Positions 9,137 through 34,010 of a stretch of DNA of 35,631 nt are shown one piece after another; the first letter of the stretch is position 1, and each line of letters begins with the position of its first letter. The translations under genes and the position numbers were made by a program. The notes beneath the pieces were generated by a model that was not told the DNA's origin, ran no database searches, and worked only from the letters and a program-made list of their open reading frames with translations. The DNA lies in assembly GCA_001662655.1 (NCBI GenBank), contig KV460207.1. One strand, written 5' to 3'. This DNA is from Pseudogymnoascus verrucosus (lineage: Eukaryota).

Positions 9137-9853
9137 TCAAAATATCCACTGGCTTGCTAGCTGCGTGTACTGCGACGGGTACAGATCGCTCGGCACCTCC
9201 GTGCTTTTCCTCTTCTTGAAATTATCATAAAACCTCTTTAAAGCCGGGAGCTGGGGATCTTCCAGAAGATCGAGGTTGTAAAGGTTGTTTGAAAACTGCA
9301 ACAGGGAAAATAGGACGCAGTCCGCAATAGTTGAAGCGCCACCTCCAGTCTCGAAACGCACATCGCCGTCGTAGTACTTCTCGATCAGCTTGAGATTCTT
9401 CCTTGTCCATTCCATCGCCATCTTAGCCCCCTCTGGGCTTGAGGGCTCAAGAGTCTCAAATAGACGGGAGCCCTTGTGGCAGGCAAAGCCGTAGTGGGCC
9501 ATCGCTTCGTCAGATAACCCGAGGATACTCCTCATTCGAGCTCTGTCTTCGGCCGAGTCGCCTCTCATGCTAGGTTGTCTCGAGTAGCTAGCTAGCTTCC
9601 TCTGCCATTCTCCGCGAGGGTTGTCACAAATATCTTCGAAGTACTCGAGTATGGCTAGGGATTGCTTGATGAAAGAGCCGTCCGGAAGCCGAAGAATTGG
9701 GGTTGTCCCTTCAGGTTTGCCGGGTGCGCCAGTTTGCATGTCAACTGGTGTAATCTTGATCATTCCTGAGTCAAGGAGACCCTTTTCACCGAGGTAAATA
9801 AGTACTCGGCGAGGATAGACACCAAAGTCGAGAACGTAGAGTTCGAGGGACAT
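9137..9853 (-). CDS. Glutathione S-transferase (GTT2-like fungal class)
   Basis: Intronless 238-aa ORF. GST motifs YPRRVLIYLGEKG, cis-Pro TTPIL, QSLAILEY and N-capping STIADC. Confidence 0.88.
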   Translation of the reverse strand: MSLELYVLDFGVYPRRVLIYLGEKGLLDSGMIKITPVDMQTGAPGKPEGTTPILRLPDGSFIKQSLAILEYFEDICDNPRGEWQRKLASYSRQPSMRGDSAEDRARMRSILGLSDEAMAHYGFACHKGSRLFETLEPSSPEGAKMAMEWTRKNLKLIEKYYDGDVRFETGGGASTIADCVLFSLLQFSNNLYNLDLLEDPQLPALKRFYDNFKKRKSTEVPSDLYPSQYTQLASQWIF

Positions 9854-10411
9854 GGCAGTGTATGTTCAATATAGCAGAGTGTAGATTGCAAATGGATCCT
9901 ATGGTAACAAAGGCATCAGAGAATATGTGATAAAAGCATGTTATTTGTAGATAATTTCTCTAGACTCTAAATAGGTGCGAAAGGTCTCCGACGATACCTT
10001 GGGGGGTGTGTTGTGTTATGTTGTGGGGCGCACTTACACGTACCTTTAGTCACCAACGTCGTCTAGGCCCATCCTATAACCCCTGCAATCCTACACCGAT
10101 ATCTAATACAGCAGAAAATGGGAGGCTATGGGTTCTGATTAGAAATCGGGTCTCGACCATGGAGTATTTAGATTAATAGCTGGTTAAACATTTATCATCA
10201 CACGTGCTCTTAAACGTCTGGACCGAGCCGCTGGTCTGGGTCGAGTACAGGCGAATAGAGAACCTGATAATTTAATCACTAGTCGCTTTGAGACTACGAT
10301 AGATTTAATAGTATTTCATTATGAGCTAATTACCGGGAACTATCTCTTACAGTTTGCGATTTTAGTTCTACATCCAAAAATTCTCACTAGACGACAACTT
10401 AGACGCGACAC

Positions 10412-12985
10412 TTAATGGATGGCCATAACTTCCACAGTGGTCCCCCCTGAAAGTCCTTCTAGATGATAGAGAGGCTCTAGGCGGGCATTACTCTGGAATA
10501 ATATGTAACGCTTAATAAACCATGGTAGCCAGGTTCGAGTCTGATATGCGGCGTGGCGTCTCGTAGGGACCCCGAAGATATAATCCAACTCTTCAAGTGT
10601 ACGTTGCCTACTAACTGTTAGTGAATGCTGGATGCTACTAAGACAAAACTTACTTGGTTTCAGGCAGGAAGAAGAAAATGATAACAAAGGCTACCATGTT
10701 CAGACCAGCATAGAAGCCAAACGCTATAGAATATATTAGCAAGAACTACCAACTCATGTGCTGCTACTGCCCCTACTCACCTCCAGTAGGGCCCATGCCA
10801 CTTAAAATTGAGGGGAACGTCAAGCCAAGGATACTAGAAAGTGTATTGTTGATAAATATCGAGAAGGCGACTCCAATCTCCCGATGGGACAATGGGAAAC
10901 ACTCCGAAGCGTAAACGTTTGGAACAGGCCCAATTCCTAAAAACTGTTAAAGAGGAATGAATCACTGAGTCACGGGAAAACGTACCAGGTGAATATAGCG
11001 CTGTAAATAAGTAAACGAAAAAAGCGATAAGTGGAAGGCGTGCGCTGTTCTCTGCAGGGATAAGAAAGCAGCACCCTGCGGCAACCAAGCACCATGCCAT
11101 ATTTGGGAAAGTAAACAGTAGCAGATTCCGGCGGCCAAACGTATCGATTGTCCAGATAGCAGGAAAGGCGAAGATGAAGTTGACAAGGCCAAACCCAAAG
11201 GAAGCAAGGAGGGTTTCTAGCGTATTGGATCCAGCTTCTTTGAATATCGTGGACGAGTAGAATGACATGATGTTAATTCCTGAGAATTGTTGGGCCACCA
11301 TAACGATCGCACCACCAAGGTTTGCTCGGCGGATTCTAGGTATTGTGAATATCTCTTTAGCGCGTTGGGCCAGCGTTGTGCCTTTGAATGCCTCTTCTTC
11401 CTCGACGAATTGGCAATGTGCGTAGTACTATTATTTTGTTAACATCTGTAATCAAGTAAAACTACTGGGTCGGCTTACGAGATCTCGGGCCGCGATAACC
11501 TCAGAATTGCGTAGACGGCAAAACGATCGGAAGGAATCCTTGTAGCGATGCTTCTTGAGGAGCCAACGTGGAGATTCTAAAATGTCAGTCTCGGAACAAA
11601 ATCGTGAACAGATGGGCATACCAGGGCAAAACCATATCAAGATTACAATTGGTACCGCTGGAGCGAAGGCAGCTGCGAGTTGGAACCGCCAGGCAAGCGG
11701 GCCTATACGATAGAACACGAGATTTGAGCAGAAACCGCTATGATCTGTTAGGACAGCGATGGCTATTGGAAAGGTGAGCAACATACACCAGAATACCAAA
11801 CGCAACAAAAAGCTGGAAGCTCATGACAAGTCCTCCGCGAATGGCAGCAGGGACAATCTCAGATGTCATGATTGGGATGGTTGTCGTCTTGATCCCCATA
11901 CCTGCAGTAGTAAGCATCTCTAGTAACAAGAGAGCCACTGCATAGACATACCAAATCCCATAAGCAGCCGGCAAATCAGTAAACTCCACCAGTTATGTGT
12001 AAAGGCTTGTCCGAGCACTGGAAATATAACGCTGGAGAAACACATTAGCTGTTGCATCGTAACGTGTATTTCGGCACTTACAAGAGGCCAGTAATGAATA
12101 TCACTCCTCGACGACCTACCCAATTGTTCATTGGATCGGCTACCCAGGTACTAAAACAATATTAGCTCAGATCTGCGCAGTAGCAATGGAACCCAGCGAT
12201 ACAAGTTGCAGTGGTTTTGATTAGAAAGGAAAGTGATACAAGGTTATGAGAAGAAATTGTCCTTACCTCATAAGACCTGAGATCCCTGGCCTAAGCTCGT
12301 ATTAGAATAAGCGGTTGTTAAGTTTGGTTACCAATACTCACGCAGCGTTGACGAAGCCGACAAGCCAAGTGTTATTCTCAATGCCAAATTCTTTTGGAAA
12401 CGATAGATTCGCTCCATTTGCGCCGGTGTTGTCCCAGCCCCTATGCAGAGTTAGAAAGGTCATCGCATTTGCTTTCTAGAGGCAGAGACGTACTGGATAG
12501 CCGAGCCAAGTGAGCAGATAGCGACGGTATAGTACAGCGCCCAAGGCAAACGCCATTTGTCTAGATTTGAATTTAGAATTATTATTATGAATGGCAGTAC
12601 TCAACTCACGAGTCTTCTCTTCACGAATCGTGATTTTGTCCTCTTCATCGAGCTCTTCGATGTCTTCAAAGCTCTCTGGATGTTGCGCCAGAAGAGATCC
12701 CTTTCGGAAGACAGACGTTTTATCCTCCAGATCATGTTCCTTGCAGAATGCCGTGACCTGTGCCAACAAATCTGGCTTTGATATTCCTAATAAGGGGTTT
12801 CGAATCCTATGGACTGGTCAGCGAGGTTGCTACAAACGATTAAGGATTACACCGTACTTCGCGTTCACATTGTTAGCGTAGTCATCTCCCACATTGATAT
12901 GGCTGTTAGGTGAAGTGAGCCCTTCGACATGATGAAAGTCTTCCTTGCCATTCTTGACAAGCGATGGTGTTGGAGAATTTGACAT
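10412..12985 (-). CDS. MFS sugar porter, polyol/inositol transporter-like clade; about 14 exons
   Basis: The manually spliced product has QGWDNTGANGANLSFP, GRRG, SEIVPAAIRGGLV, PESPRW, QQFSGIN, DTFGRRNLLL, SECFPLSHREIG and PETK..TLEELD. There are 13 GT-AG introns, including a 24-nt exon at 12267-12290. Confidence 0.92.
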
Positions 12986-13071: not shown

Positions 13072-13576
13072 GCGGGGACTTGATAAGCTGGTTATAATCA
13101 TTCCGAATACAGTTACCCTCCCTTCAAATCCGGTACGACTGTCGTCGCCTGCGGGGTTGAGGAATGGAGTGCGGGGACCCCAGGTTTTGGTCGGAGCATA
13201 TCCGGGGTCATGGGTTTGTAGCGCCTCGTTATCCCAGCAATCATAGTTCCTTCAGATTACAATATCAACAAGAGCTGAATGGGCGTCGTCATTCCCACTT
13301 TGACGACCTGCGCAGGCAACGCGGGGGGAGATATCGAGTGGCGTAGAGCTATCCTCCAAATGGATGCATGTACGGAGTGGCCCTGCACAGGCACAGATAC
13401 AATATACCAGAAGGATAACAGAGGAGTTGTGACAATTGGAGTGCCACACACACGGTAATTGCCAGTCACATAGGCCAGACCACCCACCCCTGTCGTGCCC
13501 TGTGTGCTCCATCCTCACGCCCCACTTTACCCCACTTTGCCCTGTGTGCTTCCCTCCTCCCCCCCGCTTACCCCGC
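13072..13576. promoter_or_regulatory. Cluster of CreA/Cre1-type SYGGRG sites in the divergent promoter of the transporter and aldolase
   Basis: GCGGGG at 13072, 13151, 13171 and 13321. Reverse-strand copies: CCCCAG 13178, CCCCAC 13530, CCCCGC 13562 and 13571. Confidence 0.55.
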
Positions 13577-13590
13577 CTTACCCTGTGTGT
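13497..13590 (+). repeat. Imperfect tandem repeat of about 41-42 bp (about 2.3 copies) with a CCCTGTGTG core
   Basis: CCCTGTGTG at 13498, 13540 and 13581, separated by similar C-rich spacers. Confidence 0.75.
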
Positions 13591-13607: not shown

Positions 13608-13618
13608 TCACGTGATGT
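13608..13618. promoter_or_regulatory. Palindromic E-box TCACGTGA just upstream of a TATA-like element of the aldolase gene
   Basis: TCACGTGATGT at 13608-13618, CATATAAG at 13633-13640, ATG at 13741. Confidence 0.6.
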
Positions 13619-13740: not shown

Positions 13741-15046
13741 ATGGGCAGCAATTCTATCACCTGGCTGGAGAAGCTGGAGGAGCAGTGTACGTCCACAACA
13801 AAACAGTTTTATGAGAACGGACATGCTAATTTTACATAGTAAATGTCGACGTTGATTCTATGGATCCGACCTTTGCGAAGAGCCTTCCCTTCAAGCCACA
13901 CAACCAAACCAGCAACCAGTTGTTGGTGAACGAGCAGATGTCCATCCCCGAGAATAAGGAGCTGTTTCTCAAGGCGGTAAAGGAGCGTAAAGAACAGGGC
14001 TGGGAAGCTATCCTCACACGCATTGTATGTTTGCAAGCACTGGTGACAGGTTCTGAAACTAACTCTGCGATTCATAGAGCGTCCTCCTCTGCGCCGAGAA
14101 CATCGATAACATTCAAGGCCGTGTCTTGTTGCAAACATCGCCATTCCACGCATACGACACAGATAAGGTTGTTGAGCATGCCCGCGCATATGCGCGCGAA
14201 TTCGAGAGCGTTGGAATCTCCAAGGATCGATTCTGCATTAAGATTCCTTGCACTGGCCCTGCCATGAACGCTGGTCCTATTTTGCTTAAAGATGGCATCC
14301 GAACACTTGGCACTTCGCTCTTTGGACTGCCACAAGCAATTGCTTCAAGCCAAGCTGGATGTCTGTATATCAGCCCCTACTATAACGGTTAGTTTTCATC
14401 AAGTTAAAATATTTACAGCTTACTAACAGAGTTCGTCCCAGAGGTGCGCGCCCACGCCGAGCTGGCTCTCTGGCCAGATGTCGAAGATCCGGCAACACAA
14501 CACACCATGTCTGCAAGAATGATACAGATACTAGAGACGTACAAACGTCTCTACAAGGAGACAGGAAAGGAACAGCCCATGGTGAAATCCGCTAGGTATG
14601 TCGTTGCCATCTTCCTGCGACTGTGTTATATTCCTAACAGCTCTAGTTTCATCTCTCCTAAGGAAGCAATGGCTGCTGGTGAAATGGGTTGCCACCATGC
14701 CACCATCTCGTCTGATGTACTCACTCAGCTCAGCAAGCTCGACTATGACGGTAGCAAGCAGCCAGGAGAAGGCGTACCAAAGCCCATGCATGCGTACAAG
14801 GGTGCAGGTCCAACCCCCGCCCGACTCTTGAAGCTGGCAAAGACAGACCCACTCGCAGCGGCGAACTGGGATGGCAAGTTGGCTAGCACCGACATAGACT
14901 ACCTTGCAAACAATGGAGCCGAGCTAGAAAAGGCTATCGAGGCGGATCCAGTCACCAAGACCCGCCTGTTTGAAGCACTTGATCTTTTCAAAGGCGGGGA
15001 ATTGCGAAGCAAGGCGGCGATTGAGGAGGCAATGAAACAGGTATAA
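13741..15046 (+). CDS. Transaldolase-family (class I Schiff-base) enzyme with FSA-like active-site residues
   Basis: Exons 13741-13786, 13840-14024, 14078-14387, 14442-14595 and 14647-15046. Motifs VDVDSMD, TSNQ, GRVLLQ, catalytic IKIP, GIRTLGTSLFG..Q, ISPYYN, SASF and GCHHATIS. Confidence 0.92.
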
Positions 15047-15185: not shown

Positions 15186-16330
15186 TTATTGTATGAAGTC
15201 AAAACCACCGTTCTCAGCCCTAGGATGGTTCTGCCCACGAAATTGTGATAAGGAGACACTATTGTTGTATAATAACTGTGTTGAACCGGTGTTGGTATGA
15301 AAAGTTGGCTCGAATAACATATCAAGTGGCCATTCATTGTCAGAAAGCAAATTGTCGAGAAGTTCGCTGTTCAAAGACGTTAGATCCCCAGTCGCAAGAG
15401 AATTGGGCATAGATGAGTATTGTAACGGATTCAATTCCCTTTGTTGTGTTCTAGGATCGTCAGTGTTTGTCTGGAGCGTGTTAAGTGGTAATTGCATTGG
15501 TATAGAATTGGGTAGAGGAGGGGTGGTATCCACTAGACCATTCGTCGGGTTCTCTAATACAGTAGTGAAGTCCGAGTTATCAGGTTGAGTTACGAAATAA
15601 TCGATTTCTCTACCCTGGTCACCCTCAACATCGTCGTATGGGCCATTGTCACCAAATCCACCAGGAAAGGTGCCAAATTCTTCCCGTTCTGCATCCATAA
15701 ACGCCGAAAGCGCCTTTGTTGTTATACGGTGCGGTAGTTGCTGGCTCTCTCCTGGAACGTGAAGATATTGGAGGGCGTTTAGTTGCGTAATAAGTGAATT
15801 GTAATCCGCGAGAAGGTCACGGATTTCGCTAGCAGCAGCAAGGCGGATCGCGCGTTGCTCATTAAGGTACGAGATGCTCTCGTTAACAATGAGAGATTTG
15901 GAAAGCCGACGGGCATGGGCCAGAGGTGGAAGCAGGCGTGCAAGTTCCTATGTGAACACTTAGAAGGAAGCTATTAAAAACATGTAATACATCACCTGAT
16001 GTAAGCCTTCGAACACTGTGCCTGAAAAATATGTCCATCTTGCCAATATAACCGCGTTTATGGATATGCGGCTCTCAGTAAATATTAAGCCAGCACAGGC
16101 TCCAGAAGGCTACCAACAGATCACGGGACAGACTTGGAACCTACAAGAAAGCTTTGATTAAGAGCTTCGCGCCTCTGCTTTTCAATAGAGCGATGTGAAG
16201 CTCGATCCTCGGAAGTAAAGGCCCGTACCCGCTTCTTGGACTTTCGTTTTCCATCTTTTGCCAACAGTGGCTGATCCGATATTCCAGCCCTCCCAGGAAC
16301 CCCCGTTACGTCATTGACTAGAGCCATCAT
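15186..16330 (-). CDS. bHLH transcription factor with an acidic C-terminal region
   Basis: Exons 16330-16145 and 15947-15186. The spliced bHLH reads RASHRSIEKQRREALNQSFLELARLLPPLAHARRLSKSLIVNESISYL, followed by a coiled-coil-like helix and an acidic tail. Confidence 0.88.
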
Positions 16331-17532: not shown

Positions 17533-18717
17533 ATGGCTGGACAATCAAAGGAGGCACCTATCCCTCCTTGGGGCCTCGCGGTCGCTGGCGCGACTGGTGC
17601 AGTCCTTGCCAACGCTCTGGTGTACCCTCTCGACATGTGAGTATCACCGTGCCCCACAAGCCTCCTAAGTCGATGAACAACTCTAATCCTCTTCTGCAAC
17701 AGCGTCAAGACTCGTATACAGGTCCAAGTCAAGCGGAAGGCAACTGATGCTCCCCCTTCCGCGGGGGACCCCGCACACTACGACTCGACATGGGACGCTA
17801 TCACCAAGATCGTTGACTCTGATGGATACGCAGGCCTGTACGCCGGCATCCAGGGGGCCCTGATCGGCGTGGCCTCGACCAACTTCGCATACTTCTACTG
17901 GTACTCCGTCGTGAGGACCCTGTACATGTCGTCGCGAAAGGACACAGCCGCGCCTGGAACGCTGGTGGAGCTGTCTCTCGGTGCGGTCGCAGGCTCTGTG
18001 GCCCAGATCTTCACGATCCCCGTTGCGGTCGTCACAACGCGTCAGCAGACGCAGTCAAAGGGCGAGCAGAAGGGCATGATTGACACTGGGAGGGAGGTCA
18101 TCAACAGTGAGGATGGGTGGACTGGTCTTTGGAGAGGCCTCAAGGCTAGCTTGGTCCTTGTGGTCAATCCAGCCATCACTTATGGTGCCTACCAACGCCT
18201 GAAGGACGTCATGTACCCGGGGAAGGCAAACTTAAGGCCCATGGAGGCTTTCCGTAAGTACTCGTGCTGACACCTGGTTGCCTAGAGGGTTGTTTCTAAC
18301 GAATTCTCCGTTTAGTTCTCGGTGCTATGTCGAAGTCCCTAGCAACTATTGCTACACAGCCACTTATCGTTGCGAAGGTGGGCCTGCAGTCGAAGCCCCC
18401 GCCTTCCCGCCAGGGTAAGCCCTTCAAGAGCTTCGTCGAGGTGATGGAGTTCATCGTCAAGAACGAGGGCCTCCTAGGTCTGTTCAAGGGGATTGGTCCC
18501 CAAATCACAAAGGGACTTCTTGTCCAGGGTCTCCTCATGATGACCAAGGAACGGTAAGATTCTACGCACTCTGTTCACTTTAAGGCGTAGTTACTGACGT
18601 ATATATAGCATGGAACTTCTATTCGTCCTGCTCTTCCGCTATATCCGCAAGATGAGGAGCGAGCAACTCCAGAAAGCCGCCGCGCTGGTGGCCGCCAAGG
18701 CGCCGCTTATCAAATAG
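17533..18717 (+). CDS. ANT1: Peroxisomal adenine nucleotide carrier (mitochondrial carrier family, ANT1/PMP47)
   Basis: Exons 17533-17636, 17703-18253, 18316-18553 and 18609-18717. Carrier signatures YPLDIVKTRIQ, IPVAVVTTRQQ and QPLIVAKVGLQ, plus TNFAYFYWY and LVVNPAITYG. Confidence 0.92.
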
Positions 18718-19289: not shown

Positions 19290-20428
19290 TTAGAATCGAG
19301 CGGGACTCTGAATTTGACCCTCGACAGCTTCATTGGAAGCTCCACCGCCTCCTCCGCCGCTCTGCAGCTGACCATCGTTGATTTGTTGAGCAGCGCCTCC
19401 TCCCGTGCCGCTTCCAGAGGGTTGTCCACCACCAGAGGCACCGCCTCCTCCTGCGTTGTTTCCAGCGGGCTGCTGACCACCAGAGGCGCCGCCGCCTCCT
19501 CCTCCTGCGCCACTGCCGCTCGGCTGTGAGCCTCCCGCGCACGAAGCACAAGTTGGTGCGCCGCCACTAGCTCCACCGCCGCTGGGACTGGCTCCTCCTC
19601 CGCTCCCACTCCCAGCACCTGGTTGAGTGCCGGAGGTTCCACCGCTAGGTGCTCCAGGCTGGGTGCCAGAGCCGCCCTGCTGAGCACCGGGGCTCTGGAT
19701 TTGCCCCTCTCCAGCCTCACCTGCGGCACCTCCCTGCTGTGCACCGGGGCTTTGGATTTGCCCCTCTCCAGCCTCACCTGCGGCACCTCCCTGCTGCGCC
19801 ACAGCAGGATTCTGGACTTGGCCATCTCCCAGCTGTTGTCCCGCACCGCTCTGGGGCTGGCCATCTCCCACCTGAGAAACTGGTGGATCACCGGGAGGAT
19901 CACCACCGCTGGCACAGCTGATGATGTCGATGGTGATCGGCTCGCACTGCGGGGCGATGGACTCATCATATAGATTGAAAAAGTTACCCGAGCGGCATTG
20001 GAAGAAGTTGGTGGAGCCCCTCAAGCCGAGCTTGTTGTTGCAGACGGAAAATCCGCTGGTGGTAATGGCGTTTACCTGGCCAGGAGCGGGGTCGAACTGG
20101 AATTGATGGTTGGACACGATTGATCCAATGCGGCCCTGTGCGTCCGTGAGAACACCGTCTTTCAAGGTGGCTACAAGGCTTCCGGAGGAACCGCACTGAA
20201 TAGAGTTTAGCTTAGTAGGTTCGTTGGCGTTTGGTGAGGGGGACAAACCTGGGCGCGCTTCATCATCCTGGGGGTTGCCGGGGTGGATCCTGACACAACC
20301 TTGATCTGGAAGCTACCCTCAAAGCTGGGCTGGCAACCAGACGAGCCGGCCTGCGGCATCGCAGAACCGTTCACACTGGTGGTGAGGGTAGCAGCTGCGA
20401 GAGCAGCAGCAGCGAATGTGTAACGCAT
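19290..20428 (-). CDS. Secreted PIR-family (Cis3-like) cell wall protein with a Gly-rich tail
   Basis: Exons 20428-20249 and 20195-19290. Signal peptide, a KR site, the PIR Cys domain (LTDAQGRIGSIVSNHQFQFD..GFSVC..FFQCRSGNFFNLYD..PQC) and six DGQ/EGQ PIR-like repeats. Confidence 0.9.
19675..19796. repeat. 57-bp near-perfect coding tandem repeat (19 aa, QQGGAAGEAGEGQIQSPGA)
   Basis: CCCTGCTG recurs at 19675, 19732 and 19789, with nearly identical units. Confidence 0.9.
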
Positions 20429-21894: not shown

Positions 21895-23068
21895 TTATTT
21901 CGTTTTCCAGTCTTTCATCATCAGCCCTCAAGTATACAGTACAGTGGAGTCGGAAATAACATACCGAAAGTAGCCGGCTCTTCCAGCCGTTTGACGACGC
22001 TTACATCATCTCCGATGCTGACGTTGCTGCCAGCTCCCTTTCCCAAATATCCGTATCTTCCAAAGATCGGACTGTACTTGTTGCCCTTATCCACCCTGCG
22101 GTCAGGCATCAACTTCTTCAGCATTGTCCCCTTCTCACCCAGGGCCTGCTTGCCGGTCGAATAGTCGATGTTGATACTGGCACACCGTGCACAGTTGGCA
22201 GTCAATGCTAGCTCAACCTCAACACCATCCTTATTCTCGATATTTATTTGTCCCCATAAATCTTCATACCAGGCACCCTCAGCTCCACTGAGGACAATGT
22301 TGGGACGGAACTTACGGATATCCATCTCCATACCTTCAGGTAGTCGCGATGACGTTTCCGCAAGCGACTCCTCTGTAACAACTAGGAACATGGCAATATC
22401 GGCAAATGTTATACCTGGAGGTCGCCATTCCTCTCCTTTCGCCACGATGCTAGCAGGAAGGTAGGATGAGAGATACCGTGAAACTGAACGGGCTGTAGAG
22501 GCAACAGCACTTTCTGCGGCAGAAGGCCAGAGAGAGCCCAATACTTTCCTCCTCATGGTGCCGATATATGCGAGTACAACCTCATAGCCGAACTGAGCTG
22601 AAAACCAATCGTTGTATTCGGCGCCCATATCATAAGCTCGAGTAGGCGAGTTATACATCACAACGTCGACCATCTCCAAGTTTTCCGTATCTGGTACGAA
22701 CGGTATTGTTATAGTCGTAGGCGGCAGACTGCTCGATGGGCCAGCATACGTGACTGTAAACTCCTCGAGACTATCCCCATCTCCATCACTTGTTTCCACG
22801 AGGGCTGTTTTGAAGAGTGCCATCTCAGTCAGTCTTGAAACGTGCATATTATTGAGCTTCCTCGGCTCATTATCTCCACCCTCCACGCGGAGCAACATGA
22901 ATGTGCGATCATATTGTAAGCCTGTGCCTACTACTGTCGCGGACGACAATGCAATTCCGCGCAGGGATTTGACTGGATAGATGTAAAGCTATTCCAGGAG
23001 TTAGATTGAGTAAATGCCAGTAATTGTTCTGCCTCAGTTTCTGGACGGCTTACTTGAGTGACCTTCAT
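21895..23068 (-). CDS. MOSC domain protein (mARC/YcbX-like)
   Basis: A 15-nt first exon (MKVTQ) splices to LYIYPVKSLRG. Motifs DRTFML, FADIAMFLV, KFRPNIV, EDLW and NCARC. A short last exon 21911-21895 (DWKTK*) is inferred from G|GTATGT..GCTGAT..AAG. Confidence 0.9.
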
Positions 23069-23416
23069 GGTCACAGAGTCTAACCCCACTAGTTAAAAGA
23101 ATAGAAACTGTGAAAATTGTTAAATCGGAGACGGATTGAATTTTAGACTTGAAGAAATTGTTTAGATGTAGAAATAATATATTTGGGCACTGAGATGGAT
23201 CTTAAATATGTTGTGATTGGAGATAAAGCTGACCAAATCTCGGCCTGTGGTGTGGTACGTTACCCCGCGAACGATCACTCCATGTAGGAAAGGGCGCTCC
23301 GCCACCCCAAATCCGGAAGAAAAGAGGCGGGACGCAACTAGACCGCGCGTATCCGTCAGTAATTACGACAATATGCCAGACAAGGATCTCTCAATTACTT
23401 TCCAACAAACTCTAGC

Positions 23417-24229
23417 ATGACGCCCCGTGCACTCACGCCATCCCCACCTCGGGGACACAATTCACCCTCCCACGCATCCAGCCGCATGCCGCCTCCCGTC
23501 AAGAAGCGCACCCTCCTTTGGGATTGGACTTCAGTTCGCGACTCGATCCCTCTCCCCGTTATTCCCACCAATTCCCCCATTTGCGCCTGCCATAATTGGA
23601 ACACATGGGCTCCACCCGATCTCCCCGCGCACGTCCCCTTTCGGCCGATGTTCCGCACGGTCGGGCAGCTACAGTTCCCTGAGTTCGAATATGCTCTCAG
23701 CCAGCCATACCCGATCATGCACTTCCTCAACGAGCCGGAGCGCGCAGATCTGACACCGGAGAGGGCCTGTGAGTTGTGGTTTGAGAAGATAGTCCCTCTG
23801 AGGCAGGAGAAGGGGACTAAGATTGTGGGACCAGCGGCGGCTAATGATCACCCCGGAACGGTCTGGTTGGATACGTTTATGGCTCTTGTTACGGCTCGGG
23901 ATTCGAGAGAGCGGCCTGACTTCCTCGGCCTACATTACTACGGCACTATTGCGGCTGAGGCTATAGGGTATTTGACGGACAGACATAGGAAGTATCCAGA
24001 CTTGCCAGTGAACATCAGCGAGATCGCGAGCATTAGCCGCGACAGGAGGCAGGTTGAGAAGTTTAGTAGGGAGATCGCAGAGTGGGCTGATAGGACGGAG
24101 TGGGTGGTAGAATATGGGTTTTTTGGGATGATGCAGGAGTGTGCGGATGAATTTGTGAGCCCTCAGGCACAGCTCATGGATAAGAAGGGGCAATTGACTG
24201 GATTGGGAAGATGGGTGGTTGGCGTCTGA
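23417..24229 (+). CDS. Glycoside hydrolase family 128 (Asl1-like beta-1,3-glucanase domain) without a signal peptide
   Basis: HNWNTW, VPFRPM, FLNEPE (acid/base), DFLGLHYY, ISEIA (nucleophile) and WVVEYGFFG. The true start may be the second ATG at 23486 (MPPPVKKR). Confidence 0.85.
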   Translation: MTPRALTPSPPRGHNSPSHASSRMPPPVKKRTLLWDWTSVRDSIPLPVIPTNSPICACHNWNTWAPPDLPAHVPFRPMFRTVGQLQFPEFEYALSQPYPIMHFLNEPERADLTPERACELWFEKIVPLRQEKGTKIVGPAAANDHPGTVWLDTFMALVTARDSRERPDFLGLHYYGTIAAEAIGYLTDRHRKYPDLPVNISEIASISRDRRQVEKFSREIAEWADRTEWVVEYGFFGMMQECADEFVSPQAQLMDKKGQLTGLGRWVVGV

Positions 24230-24733: not shown

Positions 24734-26774
24734 ATGGCAGCCTCTTCGGCTCCAGGCAGAGAAGACGCCATAATGGCCGTCGAACCAGGGCATGTCGTGA
24801 GACCTGGATCCCGGGCCTCGAGCAGCAATTCGACTGACCAGGACGGGTCATTTGCACGAAACAGGACGAGGACGAGCGCAGCGAGTGGGAGAGCGCCTGC
24901 GTGGTGGAAGGTCAGGCTCTTCCGGGGGATGGTGGAAGATGTAAGAAGGAGAGCACCCTTTTATTGGAGCGATTGGACAGATGCTTGGGATTATAGAGTC
25001 GTGCCAGCGACAGTATATATGTACTTTGCCAAGTAAGTATAGCCCTCGCCTTGCCAATCGCTCCGTAGAGCTAACTTTCTCCCACAGTATTTTGCCAGCC
25101 CTAGCCTTCTCTTTGGATATGTTTACGAAAACCGATATGAGCTACGGAGTCAATGAAGTGTTATTAGCGTCTGTTCTGGGGTCCATCGTCTTTGCCGTTC
25201 TGGCTGCGCAGCCCCTTGTTATTGTCGGCGTTACGGGACCCATCACGGTGTTTAATTACACGGTTTACGATATCATTACCCCTACGGGCACGAATTTCTT
25301 CGCTTTTATGTGCTGGGTTTGCCTCTGGTCACTAGTCATGCATTGGGCGCTTGCATTTACGAATGCTTGTAACGGGCTACGTTACGTCACGCGCTTCTCC
25401 TGCGATATATTCGGTTTCTACGTCGCATTTATATACATACAGAAAGGCATCCAAGTCCTCACGCATCAGGGCTACGATGAGGCCTTCTATCTATCCGTCA
25501 TGGTATCTCTACTTGTGCTTGGCTTTGCCTACGGTTGTGGCATCGTTGGCGAAAGCACCATGTTCCAGCATTACATACGAGTCTTCGTCAAGGACTACGG
25601 CACGCCGCTCACAATCGTGTTCTTCACTGGTTTTGTCCATATCGGACGCATGGATGGCGTCCAGCTACAAACCCTTCCAACCTCAAAAGCCTTCTTCCCA
25701 ACAGCCGACCGAGGTTGGCTCATCCACTTCTGGGATATCTCTGTATCTGACGTCTTCCTCGCCATTCCTTTCGCTATCCTCCTCACCATCCTCTTCTACT
25801 TCGACCACAACGTCTCATCCCTTATAGCACAGGGCTCCGAGTTCCCCTTACGAAAACCTGCTGGCTTTCACTGGGACCTCTTCCTTCTTGGCCTCACCAC
25901 CGGCGTCTCGGGCCTCCTTGGAATCCCCGCCCCCAACGGCCTCATCCCCCAAGCCCCTTTCCACACCGCCTCTCTATGCGTTACCAAGATTGTCCCTGCC
26001 TCCGAAGACAACGACTCCAAAGGCCATCCAACAGCAGTTATCGACCACGTCGTGGAGCAGCGAGTCTCGAACCTTGCCCAAGGCCTTCTAACCCTAGGCA
26101 CTATGACCGGCCCCCTCCTCATTGTCATCCACTTGATCCCGCGCGGTGTTCTCGCTGGCCTCTTCCTCGTCATGGGTGTCCAAGCCCTCGAAGCAAACGG
26201 CATCACGCTCAAGATTCTCTTCCTTCTCCGTGACCGCGCACTGACGCCGGCTTCGGACCCGCTACGACGCGTCAGCAAGCGCGCGCTTTACTACTTTGTG
26301 TCACTGCAGCTGCTAGGTTTTGCAGCCACGTTTGCGATCACGCAGACGATTGCTGCAGTGGGGTTCCCGGTCTTCATTTTTGCGCTTGTGCCGCTGCGGA
26401 CATGGGCGATGCCGAAGTGGTTCACGAGCGAGGAACTAGGGCTGATGGATGGGCCGACGGCGAGCGAGTTCACGATGGTGAGTGTGGGTGGGAATTTTGG
26501 GGAGGGGGATGGAGAAGGCGGTGGTAGCGGAGTGATGGCGAGCGCGGAGGATACGGCGGTTAGTAGCGATGAAGAGCTCGCGGAGAGGGGACAGCGGGTG
26601 GGTGCTGTTGCGACGAGGGATTTTGGGGATAAGGCACACCTCGGGGGAGGGGAGAGGGTCCAGCATCATGGAGTTGTTGGGGAGGAGATGGAGATGAGGA
26701 GGCTGAGTGGCGCAGCGAGGAGGAGGAGTACGGCGAGTAGACAAGGGGCACGTGCGGTGGACATAGATCGGTAG
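24734..26774 (+). CDS. BOR1: Borate exporter / SLC4 HCO3- transporter family
   Basis: Exons 24734-25032 and 25088-26774. Motifs RRAPFYWSDW, YFANILPALAF, QPLVIVGVTGP, TRFSCDIFG, FYFDHNVS, GFHWD, NGLIPQAP and VVEQRVSN. Confidence 0.95.
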
Positions 26775-27189: not shown

Positions 27190-29991
27190 TCACGCCGGAG
27201 TCGTCGGTGTCGGCCCCTCAGGCGGCACATCCTTGACCTCATCCGGGAACGGCGGCGGCGCGCTCTTCTTGTCCCCAGTACCAAAGTACTTCTCGAAGCT
27301 CTTGTGGTCCTCGAACGGCCTCTTTCCCAACAGCCTCACCATGTCCTCACGGCCCAGGACCTCCTTCTTCAGCAGCTCCTCGGCAATCAATCCGACCTCA
27401 TCCTTCTTCGCCTTCAGCAGATCCGAGCACTGGGTGTACGCCTCATCAATGATGCGGCGCACCTCAGCGTCGATGGTCTGCGCTGTCGACTCCGCGAATG
27501 GCTTGGTAAGCTTGTTTGGGTCGTCGGCGAAGTGCAGGGGGCCAAGTTTGGGAGACATGCCCCACTTCGTTACCATAGCCGTCGCCATCTTGGTCACCTT
27601 GTCGAAATCGTCACTGGCGCCGCTGGTCACAGTCGGGAAGTGCAGCTCCTCGCTCACGCGGCCACCGAGCGTCATAGCCATGCGGTCCATCAGCTGGTTG
27701 ACGTTCATCAGGTAGCGGTCGCCGGTGGGAAGGTACTGGGCGTAACCCAGCGCGCCCTGACCACGGGGAATGATGGAGACCTTGAGGAGCGGGTCGGCGT
27801 ACTTGAAGTACCAGCCGCAGATTGCGTGGCCGGCCTCGTGGTACGCGACGACCTTCTTCTCCTCGGGGTCGAGGACGAGGGACTTCTTCTCGAGACCACC
27901 AATAACGCGCTCGATGGCTTGCTCGAAGTGGGTCATCATGACAGATTCGGCGTTGGTGCGAGCAGCTGGTATCAGTTAGTATATGTTAAAACGACAATTG
28001 TAGGAAGAGGACTCACCAATAAGAGCTGCCTCGTTACAGCAGTTGGCAATATCGGCACCAGAGAATCCGGGGGTGAGAGTAGAGAGGCGTCCAGTCAAGT
28101 AATCGATATCCTCGTTCGTGACGATCTTTTTCAGGTGAACCCTGAAGATCTGCTCGCGACCAACCATAGTGGGGCGATCGATGGTGATGTGTCTATCGAA
28201 GCGGCCAGGACGCATGAGAGCCTTGTCCAAAACATCCGGTCTGTTCGTACCCGCCAGAACAACGACTTGATCCTTGGTGTTGAAGCCGTCCATCTCCGTG
28301 AGGATCTGGTTCAGCGTGCTCTCGCGCTCCTCGTTACCGCCTCCAAAGCCAGACTTCTCTCTCGACTTACCAATCGCGTCGATTTCGTCGATGAAGATGA
28401 TACAAGGGGTTGTCTTGCGGGCCATGGCGAACAGGTCGCGCACACGCGACGGACCGACACCGACGAACATCTCCATGAACTCGGAACCACTGACGCTGAA
28501 GAATGGCACGCCGGACTCGCCGGCCGTGGCCTTCGCCAACAGGGTCTTACCGGTTCCGGGAGGCCCGGACAGGATAGCACCGCGGGGAATCTTGGCGCCT
28601 AGCCTCGAGTAACGCTCTGGCGTCTTCAGGAAGCTGACGAACTCCATGATCTCCAGCTTTGCCTCGTCCATGCCTGCGACATCGGCGAACTTGACCTTAA
28701 TATCTGTCTCGTGGTTGAACTTCTTGGCTCTGCTCTTGCCCATGCCGAACATTCCGCCCTGTCCACCGCCACCACTTGCACCACCAGCCATACGGCGAAT
28801 CATGAAGATAGTGACACCGACAATCAGAAGCGTTGGTCCCAAGGAGATGGCGAGGTCCACAAGCGAACCCTCCTTAGTATAGCTGACCGGTATCCTCTCC
28901 CTGCTCGGGATAGCAAGCTGGTTTTGCGCCTCCTCGAGGTGCTGCTCGAAGGATTGCACGGACCCAATTGTGAAGTAGTAGTGGAAGTTAGGTTGCGCAG
29001 CTGGTGACTCTGGGTAGGCGCGCGCCGTGGCCTCGCGGTGCAGCACGACGCGCACGCGGTTCTCGTTGACGACGACAAGCTTCTCGACGAGGCCCTTCTC
29101 GAGGAACGTCGTCCGGAACTCTTGCCATGTGATGTCGCGCGAGTTCTCGCCCGGCACGACCATTCTGTAGAGCATGTAGGTTGTGAACGCACCTAGCATG
29201 GCAGTGTTGAAGTCCAGCTTGAGCTCGAAGGACTTAGGCCCGCCCTGCCCGCCGCCCTGCTGCCCTTGCTGTCCCTCCTGCTTGCCGCTCTTGTTCCCGC
29301 CAGGTGGCGGAGGTGCCTCGATCGGTTCCTCCTGCCCAGCCGGAGGAGCGAACTCGCTAAGTGACTTGCCCTTTGCTTCTAGTTCGATCACAATTTTCGC
29401 GAGGTTGAGCATGATCGCCGCCTCTTGTGTGCTCAACGGCTCTCCTCCCTTGTGCTTCTCAAGAATCCCGAGCAGTGCCTTCGGATAGCCCTTCTCCTTT
29501 AATAACCTCGCCGATACCTCCGATGACCAGGACTTTGGGAATGAAAACCCCTCCTTCAGCTCCTCAGTTATTCCCTCCAGCGCCACCGCATCCTCAGGCG
29601 AGAGCATCACTATCCCATTCCGCATGAGCTTCTGCGCGTTCTCCGCCGCCTGCCCATGGGCGAGACTCCCATGGAGAAATCCCAAATCCATCTCTTTCTC
29701 CGGGCCGGGGGTTGGCGGCTCAACCCCCTCCTCCACCTTCTTCACCTCCCCCTTCTCCACCTTCTTCTCCCCAGCCTCCTTATCCCCATTCTCCTTCTCC
29801 ACCTTCTTCTTCCCCCCCTCCTCCATCTTCATCCAAGAACTCCCACTCGTAAACCCCCTAGCCGCCACCATCCTCGCGCTCAACGGCACCGCACCCCGCC
29901 TCCCCAATCCATGCCTCGCCGCTATCCTCGTCGTCGCCGCCGCCACTCCCAGCCGCGCAATGCGCCCCGGCGTCCGCAAGAGCATGCTCAT
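27190..29991 (-). CDS. Mitochondrial m-AAA protease subunit (Yta12/Afg3-like FtsH family)
   Basis: Exons 29991-28017 and 27965-27190. Arg-rich presequence, two TM segments, Walker A GPPGTGKT, Walker [19 protein letters not shown] and zinc motif HEAGH. Confidence 0.95.
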
Positions 29992-31004
29992 CGCTCCTCC
30001 GTGCTCGGCCCGCGCGGGCTCGTCGTCAGCGCCGTCGTGTGCGGTCTCTCGTCGTTTTCAGCGGTAGTAATCGTGCGTTTCGTGTGGTTTATCTCATCCG
30101 GGACGTGTGCAATTCGGGAAGCGCACGCGTGTGTGTTTTGTTGGTTGGGATTGAGTGGTTTGCGCTGTGCAGGGGACGGGTTTTTTGGGGTCTGCTTGAT
30201 GGGTATGATGGTCGGGATGTAGTAGCTTCTCGCTAAATTGTTAAGAATATTCCGCGTAGCACCCGCCGATGCCTTGGGGAGAGAATGATTACATAATCAC
30301 GGAGCTACGTAGTTGCCATACCTCGGAGATACCTTACTGCCGGTCTTGGAAACCAACTTTTTGCTCTTAGTAGTTGTGCCAAGTATGTAGAAGTTTAAAG
30401 AAGGGGTTGTGGATAACAGCATTAATCATAGGAACTATGGTTTAAGAAAAAGCGTTTAATCGCTCAGAGTTGCAATTCGCAAGCTAACTCAGAAATGGAA
30501 CTAAAGAGATTATTCCCATTAGTTTAAAGTTTAAATTCCTAAGATCAATTCCCAGGCTCATGCACGCACTCTTAGTCTCTCACTTTTGCTCACTCATTCC
30601 AAGTCAACGCCCGTATGGTCCTCGCAGTAAGTATGTATAAAATCATTTTCAGATTCTCATAGCTCCATCTACAGCTCCCACCCCCTAGCACACCGCCCCG
30701 AACAATAACCTCGCCCCCATCGCGAAGCAAAATTTGAGTGAAGATCCGTTTCCCATCCCATCATACCCACAGCCCTCATAAATATCTCCTGGAAACCCCA
30801 TTCATACAGAGCAAATGCTCACCCTCGTCAAAAATCCCAAGCCAAAAACTCTCCGAAAACAAAAAGCAAAAGCCAAAAGAAGCCAGAGAAAAGACGAAAA
30901 GCATCCCGCTCTCCCCAACACCATCCCATCCCATCCCATCCCATGCCCTCTAATATAATACATTACTTCCCCCTCCCTCTCCCCCTTTTCAACAAAACTC
31001 ACAA

Positions 31005-33766
31005 TCACCTCTCCACCGCCCCCGGAACCCCAGCACCCCCAGCACCATCACCCATCCCCACCCCACCGCCCGTCAAATCCGCCCAATCCCACTCCAGTGT
31101 CATAGGCATATTCCACAAATCCGGCGGCACAAACGGCTGCTGGAAGCTCTGCGGGTTAATCGGGGAATGCGGATCCGCCCCCGACAAGTATCTACTCATA
31201 TCCGGGAACGGCACTCCCCCACCGCCACCACCATTCGCCGCCGCCGCCGCAGCAGCAGCCGCATTAGACAGATGTTCGAAATCCGTGGCGATCTCATGGA
31301 ACCCCGCATCAGACATCCAACTCATATCCTGCGCCTGCCCACCCCCCCTCCCATCCGCAGCCGAGTACGACGTCACATCCCCATACCGAAACTGCGGCGG
31401 GGTCTGCCCGGCACTACTGCTAGGCGGGGGTCTCGCAATCGGCGGCCTATTAACGCTAAGATTCGGGAGCACCTCATCGAGTTCCTTGCGCTTTCGGCGC
31501 GTAGTCGTGTCGCGATCGGCTTTGTCGAGGACGACGCGGGCGATGCGCTCGAATTCGGCGCAGACGCCGAGCATGCGTTTTACGCCTGTGTTTTCGTCTT
31601 CGCCGGCGAGCATGGAGAGGAAGTTCACGACGAGGTTCATGAGCCGGACGTCGGAGCGGGCGCGGGGGTCTTGGGGGTTTTGGAGGATGTTGCCGAAGAG
31701 GGTCATGAGGGCGGAGACGGGGTAGTAGAGGATTAGCCTGTGGGAGGGGAGGGTTAGTTTGTGTATTGTGATGTGGGGAAGGGGGGGGGGGTGATTGGAG
31801 GGGCTTACCAGACACAAGAGAAATCGCCTTGGGGAACGTATTTGACGAGGTGGATTGAGGCGCGTGCGGAGGATACACACAGCGCCGCGGACGAGAAGAC
31901 GCGCGGGTTAAGCGGTCGCGAATTCAGGCCCTGGATGGCGAAGTTGGAGAGTCGGCTTGTCCAGTAGCCGTGGTGGATGGACATGCGGTGGATGGTGGTG
32001 AGGCAGTTGTAGTATCCGAAATGTAGCACGACGACGTGGAGGATGAGTGGAGTATGCGATGCCTTGATTTCGTGCTCGGGGCGGAAGTCGATGGGGATGC
32101 TGTCTTTCCACTCCTCGAGCTGCTGGTCTAGCTCGCCGATTGTGTTGAGTAGTTCGCCGTCTGACTGTTTTGAGGCGCGCGTCGAGTAGAGCTGGGTGTA
32201 TACCTTGCTCACGATCGTGGAGAACTCGCACATTAGTCGGAACAGGTTGACCTTGCCCTTACCATCCGCCAGCGGGATGTTACCGATGTTGTCCTCTGGG
32301 TCCGCGCTCGGAAGCTCCACATTCATATCATCGTCATCCTGTACGGGCGGCCGCCCGAAGCGCAGGCAGATGTCCTTGTCGAGCATATACCCAATCCAGA
32401 AAACGCGCTTGCGCTGCTCAATCTCAATTGGGTTGAGGTTGAAGCCCGACCCGCGCTTGTGCAGCCCGATGCTGTGCGACAGCCTGATGGCGGATGCGAC
32501 CAGGAGGAACGACGGCTGCGGGTTCGGCGTGCCTTGCATGAATAGCGCCATGCCGAGGAGCGCTTGTACGCTGAGAAGATCGGTGTTGCGCATCGTTAGC
32601 TCGGTGTACACCGCCATGGCGTTCTTGAGGTAACCCCACGCCTTCTGGTCTTCCTCTTCCGGGACCAGATTGCTCATAACCCGTAGGCGATGCGCAATGG
32701 CGAGGGCGATATTCAAACTCGCCCACCATCCTGATCCGTCATATGGGTCGCGAGAATATTGTCGCTCGACGAGGTGCATGAAGGTCGGTTGGTGGAAGAG
32801 AGGGAACATGCAGTTGAAGTTCTCAAAGAAGTCCTTCAACAGAGACAACGCCTCTGCCTTCTGCGGAAGCTGGAGATATATGCGCCGCTCGAAGATATCA
32901 CCAAACACCTCCGGCTTCCAGTACACCCACTTATTGTCATCGACCGTCGCCTCCGCGATCATAGTCTGAAACGACTGATCGCCCGTCTTCTCATTCACCC
33001 ACTGTATTCCCTTGGGCGAGAATATCGAGAACCCCGACGACGACCCAATATACCTCGTCTCACCCTGATCATTAGTAACGAGCGAGCACATCAAATCCGA
33101 CAGCTCCTCCACCTCCTCCGCGGTCTTCTCCCCCACCCTCCGCTCCGACCCCCCCATCGTCCCCGGCGTGGGCACACTATTCGGGCTGTCGGACTCACCC
33201 TCCGCGCCCGGCGTCCCCCTCAGCGTCGTCGCCTGCGACGGCGACGTCGGGATCGAATCAGAGAAGTGACTCGCATCCCTCTTCGCAGACTCGCGACTCG
33301 CCAAGCGTTTCTCCAACATCCCCAAATCCGTACTCCCCCCATCATCCTCATTCAGCAGCCCCGACAACCTCAGCAGATTCTCCATCCTCCCCAGCCTATT
33401 CTCCAGCCCCTCAATATACTTCGCCCCCTTCGGCGGACTCCTCTTCTTCTCCACCTGCGTAAACACGCACTCGGTCTTGTAGTTTGTGCAATGGCTGCAC
33501 GCGGGCATCTGGCCATCGCACTTGATCTTCTTCTTCCGACACATGTCGCACGCGCGCGCGATGCGCCGCCGCTTCGCCTCGTTGCTGTCGTCGAGCAGGG
33601 TTCCCGCGTCGCCGAACATCCCAGAGGTGAGGCCCATGCCCTCGAGGCCGGTGAGGATGGGTGAGCCGTCCGCGGCGTAGGAGCCGAAGATCTGCGGCGG
33701 CGGGTCGTGGTTTAGGTGCGCGGAGGCGTGCATGGGGTAGGTGTGATGGTTGGGGTTGGGAGACAT
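31005..33766 (-). CDS. Zn(II)2Cys6 transcription factor with Fungal_trans domain, resembling the AtrR/FTF2 group
   Basis: Exons 33766-31809 and 31737-31005. [29 protein letters not shown]; middle homology region [32 protein letters not shown]-terminal [13 protein letters not shown]. The ortholog assignment is from memory and the start codon is uncertain. Confidence 0.88.
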
Positions 33767-34010
33767 GGTGGTCGTGGTCGTGGTTGCGCGTGGCGCTGTG
33801 GGTGGTGGTGGTTCTGTCGTCAGTCGCAAGACGGATGGTGGATGTGGGATGGTGTGAGCATGCCAGTCTCTCAGACCGGATGAGTTGGGATTATATGTGG
33901 CGGGGTTCGTGGTATTTCGTTTCTCGTTCCTCTTTCGCAGATATTATCGATCTTGATCTCTCGCCGCCGTTCCCATATAATTATTTGGTAGTGGTTCCCT
34001 CTCTATCTCT

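Follow-up and report, generated by a model that had tools for sequence, protein, structure and literature searches.

The described systems closest to the enzyme considered here are transaldolase B (TalB) and the fructose-6-phosphate aldolase (FSA) FsaA, both from Escherichia coli, together with the engineered variants derived from them. In the excerpts of PMC3962226 on which our comparison draws, the single exchange F178Y turns TalB into a dihydroxyacetone (DHA)-dependent aldolase of about the efficiency of FSA, and the acceptor phosphate is bound by two arginines and one serine; the double variant F178Y/R181E has a better affinity for non-phosphorylated D-glyceraldehyde, and at position 176 (129 in FSA) serine favours DHA and alanine favours hydroxyacetone. 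The excerpts of PMC13259622 describe a Gln59-Thr109-Tyr131 water network and the interconversion of aldolase and transaldolase activity by residue exchange between FSA and TalB, and further report that Arg134 and Lys168 recruit phosphate, that weaker phosphate binding broadens the use of non-phosphorylated aldehydes and that A129S improves DHA activation; a title cited together with this paper presents FSA as decameric, with its C-terminal helix swapped. Against this background, we analysed a gene on the plus strand at positions 13741-15046 of a 35,631-nucleotide (nt) stretch of DNA from Pseudogymnoascus verrucosus (contig KV460207.1 of assembly GCA_001662655.1), the whole of which is called the window in the following. 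Judged by its residues, the product of this gene naturally unites the changes that engineers made one by one, and adds Leu154 and Ile234 to them.

Active-site residues of the fungal protein

An initial annotation, made from the letters of the window, had read the motifs GRVLLQ, IKIP, GIRTLGT and ISPYYN in this gene and had taken them to mean that the Glu and Phe of true transaldolases (TalB E96/F178) are swapped for Gln and Tyr, as in FSA. All four strings are indeed present, with Gln96 encoded at 14132-14134, Lys132 at 14240-14242 and Tyr178 at 14378-14380, and both swaps are borne out by an alignment with TalB (K-12 record), in which no Glu falls on the acid/base position since Gln96 pairs with Glu96 and Tyr178 with Phe178. 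In the same alignment Lys132, Thr156 and Ser176 have identical counterparts in TalB, Leu154 replaces Asn154, and the Schiff-base Lys132 and its helpers Asp21, Asn41 and Thr156 correspond to Lys132, Asp17, Asn35 and Thr156 of TalB. In FsaA, the Gln that had been claimed for the equivalent of position 96 stands in the TalB-96 column of a MAFFT alignment, its motif GRLFAQ lying outside the BLAST alignment.

The agreement with FsaA extends beyond this pair of residues. The FSA triad Gln59-Thr109-Tyr131 and Leu107 are matched by Gln96, Thr156, Tyr178 and Leu154, the motif GIRTLGT pairs with GIPTLGT, and the two proteins share the Schiff-base Lys, Asp, Asn and Thr, the GIxTLGT and PYxN motifs and the FSA-specific equivalents of Gln59, Thr106, Leu107, Tyr131 and Asn133. 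FsaA, which belongs to transaldolase subfamily V (PDB entry 1l6w), differs, however, in its length (220 amino acids (aa) against 364 in the fungal protein), in an aligned span of only 132 residues with 28% identity, and in carrying Arg134, Lys168 and Ala129 where the fungal protein has Glu181, Ile234 and Ser176. The phosphate binders R134 and K168 of FSA and R181 and R228 of TalB fall on the same two positions, so that in the alignments both basic phosphate-binding residues are replaced in the fungal protein alongside the Gln/Tyr swap, a change that the initial annotation had not mentioned, and Ser232 is the sole retained member of the TalB phosphate site Arg181/Ser226/Arg228. The signature over 12 positions reads DTNEKNTSFRSR in TalB and in 20 of 20 other classical transaldolases, DTNQKLTAYRSK in FsaA and DTNQKLTSYESI in the fungal protein.

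Searches with exon 3, both word-indexed and exhaustive with HMMER, returned hundreds of relatives. Among 120 matches listed, the 100 entries with an organism name are all fungi of the Ascomycota and Basidiomycota (e.g., Mycena and Schizophyllum), and a second search, with a profile of the most divergent members, likewise gave fungi only (106 named among 120 matches listed). Across 153 full-length relatives, the residues in question are nearly fixed (Gln96 in 150, Lys132 in 152, Leu154 in 151, Thr156 in 153 and Tyr178 in 149), position 176 is Ser in 136 and Ala in 17, and Ser232, the equivalent of TalB Ser226 and FsaA Ser166, is kept in 125. The two positions of the former phosphate binders are occupied more variably: position 181 carries Glu in 84, Phe in 33, Leu in 12, Arg in 1 and other residues in 23, and position 228 (TalB numbering) carries Ile in 104, Val in 16, Leu in 14, Lys in 4 and Arg in 3. 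The claim that true transaldolases have Glu and Phe at the swapped positions holds for all 21 classical sequences examined (TalB and 20 others), every one of which has Glu96, Asn154, Phe178, Arg181 and Arg228. Nine positions are fixed within each group yet distinct between the classical enzymes and the fungal family (V15D, T34S, P36Q, E96Q, C153T, N154L, F178Y, G180N and G298A), and at five of them, Gln96, Thr153, Leu154, Tyr178 and Asn180, the family agrees with FsaA.

On balance, we favour the view that the protein is a Schiff-base, DHA-releasing aldolase that acts on a free ketose, a reading drawn from its residues and from analogy with the bacterial enzymes. It would be a cytosolic class I (Lys-Schiff-base) member of the transaldolase/FSA superfamily with a long, TalB-type TIM barrel, in which Lys132 would form an imine with the C2 carbonyl of the ketose and Asp21 would promote cleavage between C3 and C4. 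With an FSA-type water network of Gln96, Thr156 and Tyr178 as its acid/base set, in place of the Glu/Phe pair of transaldolases, the enzyme would then protonate and hydrolyse the resulting three-carbon carbanion/enamine rather than hold it for transfer, and DHA would be released. On account of Ser176, DHA would be preferred to hydroxyacetone as donor. Since Glu181 and Ile234 stand in place of the two arginines of the acceptor/phosphate site, the most likely substrate is a D-threo ketose in its free, non-phosphorylated form; by chemistry, fructose, sorbose, xylulose and sedoheptulose would all be candidates, with none of them singled out.

It is also conceivable that the enzyme moves a DHA unit between non-phosphorylated sugars and releases no free DHA, since its scaffold and its residues Asp21, Asn41, Lys132, Thr156 and Ser176 are those of subfamily I transaldolases and the sources annotate it as such; engineered Gln/Tyr variants, too, may retain some residual transfer activity. 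Glu96 and Phe178, however, are invariant in the 21 classical enzymes and absent here, and it is exactly the set of residues 96 and 178 to which the switch between aldolase and transaldolase is attributed (excerpts of PMC3962226 and PMC13259622), which is why we infer aldolase rather than transferase activity and regard a transferase as unlikely.

A true fructose-6-phosphate aldolase, which like FsaA would cleave fructose 6-phosphate into DHA and glyceraldehyde 3-phosphate, could likewise account for the match of Gln96, Thr156, Tyr178, Leu154 and Asn180 with FsaA and for the phosphate-site Ser232 that most relatives retain. Nevertheless, fructose 6-phosphate is an unlikely substrate by alignment, because R181/R228 of TalB and R134/K168 of FSA correspond to Glu181/Ile234, with Arg at position 181 in just one and Lys or Arg at position 228 in seven of the 153 relatives. 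In addition, non-phosphorylated acceptors were the very reason for selecting R181E in TalB (PMC3962226, in excerpt), and the sugar importer encoded next to the gene (see below) would bring in free sugar, all of which makes this alternative improbable.

Given that two canonical catalytic and two binding residues differ from those of a transaldolase, one could finally suspect a catalytically dead or decaying transaldolase paralogue; we note in this context that, according to the excerpt of PMC13158570, a second predicted transaldolase of Neurospora crassa, NCU06142, which may or may not belong to the fungal family, is lowly expressed. Against decay stand the invariance of Lys132, Asp21, Thr39, Asn41 and Thr156 in an alignment of 61 sequences (A1), the conservation of the replacement residues in their turn, the presence of spliced RNA-like contigs and the identity of 72-74% between the ascomycete product and its counterparts in Mycena sp. 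(P0009) and Schizophyllum commune (P0013), so that we consider a dead enzyme extremely improbable. For such distant fungi, the identity of the product to the Mycena (73%) and Schizophyllum (72%) orthologues seems high, and it may reflect either strong constraint or an old gene transfer.

Gene model, scaffold and family

The gene consists of five exons with a coding sequence of 1095 nt and a product of 364 aa, and its four introns of 53, 53, 54 and 51 nt each run from GT to AG. The exons, all on the plus strand, are the following:

13741..13786, plus strand: exon 1, with the ATG at 13741; joint 13786>13840 seen in run X3
13840..14024, plus strand: exon 2, with Asp21 (13854-13856), Thr39 and Asn41 (13914-13916); joint 14024>14078 seen in run X3
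14078..14387, plus strand: exon 3, the catalytic core, which alone matches Pfam TAL_FSA with E 3.4e-18 and 66.4 bits
14442..14595, plus strand: exon 4, opening with the remainder of the Glu181 codon and ending within the Ser232 codon; joint 14386>14441 (cut +1) seen in run X3
14647..15046, plus strand: exon 5 including the stop codon, with Ser232, Ile234 (14651-14653) and the C-terminal helical region; loose ends of run X17 span the junction 14595/14647

In exon 3, the codons start at 14132 (Gln96), 14240 (Lys132), 14306 (Leu154), 14312 (Thr156), 14372 (Ser176) and 14378 (Tyr178), and the C-terminal helical region encoded by exon 5 comprises about 45 residues beyond the length of TalB. Since introns split the codons of both Glu181, whose first base is 14387 at the end of exon 3 and whose other two open exon 4, and Ser232, the junctions were compared with RNA-like contigs. 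Contigs of run X3 have joints exactly at introns 1, 2 and 3, and two contigs of run X17, a soil metatranscriptome, pass directly from exon 4 to exon 5; for runs X1 and X3 the RNA nature is a guess, and gene parts that they leave uncovered carry no meaning. The junction peptides SPYYNEVRAH and KSASFISPKE are also unbroken in P0002, P0005 and P0007, which are open frames of 342-365 aa on contigs of 1258-1321 nt, and the product as a whole is identical to P0001 ('hypothetical protein VE03_02063 [Pseudogymnoascus sp. 23342-1-I1]') at 352 of 364 positions without a gap.

As an observation in its own right, intron 4 with its 51 nt contains no stop codon and preserves the reading frame, and its retention would add 17 residues within the conserved Ala-Ser-Phe stretch that contains the phosphate-site Ser. 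Two contigs of run X1 join 14375/14376 to 14427/14429, where the skipped sequence has the ends CT and AC, i.e., GT and AG on the minus strand, and other X1 contigs retain the sense introns 1 and 4. The joints within 14375-14427 look like those of a spliced antisense transcript, perhaps a read-through from the convergent bHLH gene described below.

An AlphaFold model of P0001 (predicted local distance difference test score 96.4, predicted TM-score 0.93) was compared with solved structures by Foldseek. The best matches are long subfamily I transaldolases, namely those of Francisella tularensis (TalA), human and E. coli (TalB and its mutants; 3igx, 1f05, 1onr and 3kof), with E-values from 3.8e-20 to about 1e-18 and TM-scores (target) of 0.81-0.86, whereas FSA is matched with E about 3e-9 and a TM-score (query) of 0.47, with under half of the model covered. 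The predicted fold is thus the long, TalB-type single-domain TIM barrel, a type of about 320 aa, and not the short FSA type. With the classical subfamily I transaldolases (E. coli TalB, human TALDO1 and F. tularensis TalA), the fungal protein shares the barrel core, the Schiff-base residues and the best fold match, while these enzymes differ in Glu96, Asn154, Phe178, Arg181 and Arg228 and form a separate clade. By sequence, the top match among solved structures is 3kof, described as 'double mutant F178Y/R181E of E. coli transaldolase B', followed by E96Q/F178Y. These engineered variants (3kof for F178Y/R181E, 4rz6 and 9qpk for E96Q/F178Y) have in common with the fungal protein the long scaffold and the residues at 96, 178 and 181 that it carries naturally, yet they are laboratory mutants of about 28% identity that keep Asn154 and Arg228 in place of Leu154 and Ile234.

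P0001 scores 106.1 bits with the Pfam model TAL_FSA (PF00923; gathering cut-off 27). The more specific NCBIfam models give the fungal protein 82.4 bits for talAB (TIGR00874; cut-off 396.2, TalB control 555) and 53.1 bits for FSA (TIGR00875; cut-off 245.95, FsaA control 279.1). The NCBI curated models therefore reject both names, and the protein belongs to a branch of its own within the superfamily, specific to fungi and built on a TalB scaffold. The reading of the initial annotation as an FSA-type aldolase consequently stands in part: aldolase chemistry is plausible, and the protein is FSA-like in its residues Gln96, Tyr178, Thr153, Leu154 and Asn180, but it is not an FSA by family, given the TalB fold, a place nearer to the classical enzymes than to FsaA and 53.1 against 245.95 bits. 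In a maximum-likelihood tree of 92 rows (quick IQ-TREE search, LG+G4, FsaA as outgroup), the 60 family rows lie on one side of a branch as a clade of their own (support in the Shimodaira-Hasegawa-like approximate likelihood ratio test, SH-aLRT, 92), and the classical transaldolases and a protist group lie opposite (SH-aLRT 99).

The Gln/Tyr pair is also found outside the fungi. A group with MMETSP marine-eukaryote transcripts (P0251 and P0267-P0278) shares the long form and has Gln96 and Tyr178 in 10 of 10 members, but all 10 also retain Asn154, Arg181 and Arg228, and the group clusters with the classical transaldolases. Its members are 41-46% identical to classical transaldolases, P0251 reaches 338.6 bits with the talAB model (cut-off 396.2), and by its residues the group looks like a set of candidate eukaryotic long-form sugar-phosphate aldolases. 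That the fungal family and the protist group acquired the Gln/Tyr pair independently was considered and dropped, although the FSA-like residues may be either convergent or ancestral, as the approximately unbiased test did not reject a single clade of all 70 long-form Gln/Tyr rows (p-AU 0.606, with FsaA as the sole and long-branched outgroup) and the tree constrained to unite these rows is better by 7.35 log-likelihood units.

Members of the fungal family are named 'transaldolase', 'transaldolase B' or 'aldolase' in their sources, which agrees with the suspicion that annotation pipelines would label the enzyme as a transaldolase. A second large fungal clade with the Gln/Leu/Tyr signature (P0196, P0204, P0244, P0246 and P0386-P0499) has lengths of 314-366 aa, mostly about 325-340 aa, and the members checked have Ala176, as in wild-type FSA, and Thr or Val at position 228. 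Its sources call it 'transaldolase' as well (e.g., Botrytis BCIN_09g03850), and in some species both clades occur side by side, as in Hyaloscypha bicolor with P0004 and P0437. The statement of the initial annotation that no characterised fungal member is known agrees with the full-text literature, with most subscription journals outside the search, in which we found none, and no publication dealing with an FSA-like enzyme of fungi or with the gene trio described in the following.

Conserved neighbours and shared promoter

The aldolase gene is flanked by a divergent sugar porter gene and a convergent transcription-factor gene, and repeats of a conserved word precede its start codon:

10412..12985, minus strand: multi-exon MFS sugar porter gene, divergent from the aldolase gene, bounds approximate, based on Pfam Sugar_tr matches to the exons and on open frames
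15186..16330, minus strand: bHLH transcription-factor gene, convergent with the aldolase gene, bounds approximate, based on the HLH profile over two exons and on open frames
13498-13506, 13540-13548 and 13581-13589, plus strand: conserved promoter word CCCTGTGTG, present three times, 160-243 nt 5' of the ATG on the aldolase-sense strand

The intergenic region between porter and aldolase measures about 755 nt, and the stop codons of the aldolase and bHLH genes are 140 nt apart. In the bHLH gene, the HLH profile is split into positions 2-20 (E 0.0041) and 22-51 (E 0.01).

A metagenome scan with exon 3 yielded 31 related loci (L011 equals L012, L013 equals L014 and L021 equals L020). Orthologous porter exons lie 5' of the aldolase in L005, L011, L013, L015, L016, L017, L019 and L021, several related contigs having too short an upstream sequence to judge the porter, and a bHLH frame lies 3' of it in L004, L005, L007, L009, L011, L013, L017, L019 and L021; L008, L015 and L016 show no bHLH match within a downstream flank of just about 1-1.4 kb. 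The loci with the trio range from 94% down to 66% identity in aldolase exon 3, and the named relatives closest to them belong to Hyaloscypha and Cadophora (Leotiomycetes) and to Penicillium (Eurotiomycetes), so the trio is kept across fungal classes. No further recurrent partner was detected by Pfam among 69 flanking open frames of eight loci, and the candidates GST, F-box, second MFS, mitochondrial carrier and PIR were dismissed as members of the unit, being found in no related locus.

The promoter word is largely confined to these loci. In 236,139 nt, comprising the window and the non-duplicate loci, CCCTGTGTG occurs in 30 exact copies, 29 of them upstream of the aldolase; 25 lie in nine defined intergenic regions with a total of 9.3 kb, all on the aldolase-sense strand, and the remainder comprises four on short contigs, likewise 5' of the aldolase, and one elsewhere. 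One to eight copies are present per locus in the window and in L005, L011, L013, L015, L016, L019, L021, L003, L008 and L009; the intergenic region of L017 has no exact copy. The extended consensus is about TGCCCTGTGTGC. A second word, ATCCGGGG, which has a CreA-like core, is found in the porter-aldolase regions and, in five loci, beyond the bHLH frame, and is far less specific. The palindromic E-box TCACGTGA (CACGTG, 13609-13614) was dropped as a site for the bHLH factor because it is absent from all eight other intergenic regions.

As a conserved three-gene unit with its own promoter element, the arrangement of monosaccharide-type porter, aldolase and bHLH genes points to the uptake and direct cleavage of a sugar. 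Alternatively, the enzyme could have a mainly synthetic role, in which DHA, hydroxyacetone or glycolaldehyde would be added to an aldehyde for aldehyde detoxification or the formation of a specialised metabolite. FSA-type enzymes readily catalyse such additions (excerpts of PMC3962226 and PMC13259622), and the differences between clades at the donor-pocket position 176 and at position 181 suggest varied substrates. Yet neither the window nor the syntenic loci contain biosynthetic core genes, the sugar importer and the regulator are the only conserved neighbours, and the recurrence of CreA-like SYGGRG words in the shared promoter fits catabolism at the level of the consensus. We thus infer a catabolic role and give a synthetic one little probability.

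The other genes of the window look ordinary, and no signs of a biosynthetic cluster were detected among them by Pfam, on which the following assignments are based:

1-1747: glucosidase II beta subunit
9137-9865: GST
17677-18270: mitochondrial carrier
19290-20312: PIR cell-wall protein
21921-22988: MOSC protein
23363-24229: glycosyl hydrolase
24945-26774: HCO3-type transporter
27976-30057: FtsH-like AAA protease
31805-33943: Zn2Cys6 factor

A possible free-sugar pathway and its implications

Taken one step further, the trio could represent a hitherto unnoticed, ATP-independent entry to sugar catabolism in filamentous fungi, in which the porter would import a free D-threo ketose and the enzyme would split it into DHA and an aldose without prior phosphorylation, under the control of its own bHLH factor and of the new cis-element TGCCCTGTGTGC. 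We put this forward tentatively, as a possibility rather than an expectation.

Several observations speak against the aldolase and pathway readings or narrow them. What holds for engineered TalB and FSA may not hold for a protein that shares just 28% identity with each of them. Family members vary at position 181 (with Glu, Phe, Leu or another residue), and because of this and of the seven of 153 relatives that keep Lys or Arg at position 228, specificity may differ between the clades, as far as can be judged from the residues. The porter can be placed only in the general sugar-porter family and thus names no sugar; attempts to name one through Atlas and solved-structure searches returned generic hexose, xylose or STL1-type porters only. 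The neighbouring regulator is a bHLH factor, yet the conserved word CCCTGTGTG is no E-box, and the loci L022, L023 and L025, with 57-64% identity in exon 3, have neither porter nor bHLH neighbours. Finally, intron 4 (14596-14646) is kept in one contig each of runs X3 and X1.

If the favoured reading as a DHA-releasing aldolase is true, models of the pentose phosphate pathway would mis-assign hundreds of fungal genes that bear the label 'transaldolase'. The sugar models of Aspergillus niger and N. crassa count extra predicted transaldolases, which may or may not belong to the fungal family. Biocatalysis groups that mutate TalB and FSA, moreover, aim at just such a DHA aldolase that lacks a phosphate site, and the enzyme would be nature's counterpart of the engineered TalB DHA aldolase for non-phosphorylated substrates, in a family that supplies many ready variants at the donor position 176 and the acceptor position 181. 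For the fungi themselves, the unit of porter, aldolase and regulator with its promoter word offers a testable handle on a putative new carbon-source pathway and may open up an unstudied route of free-sugar breakdown.

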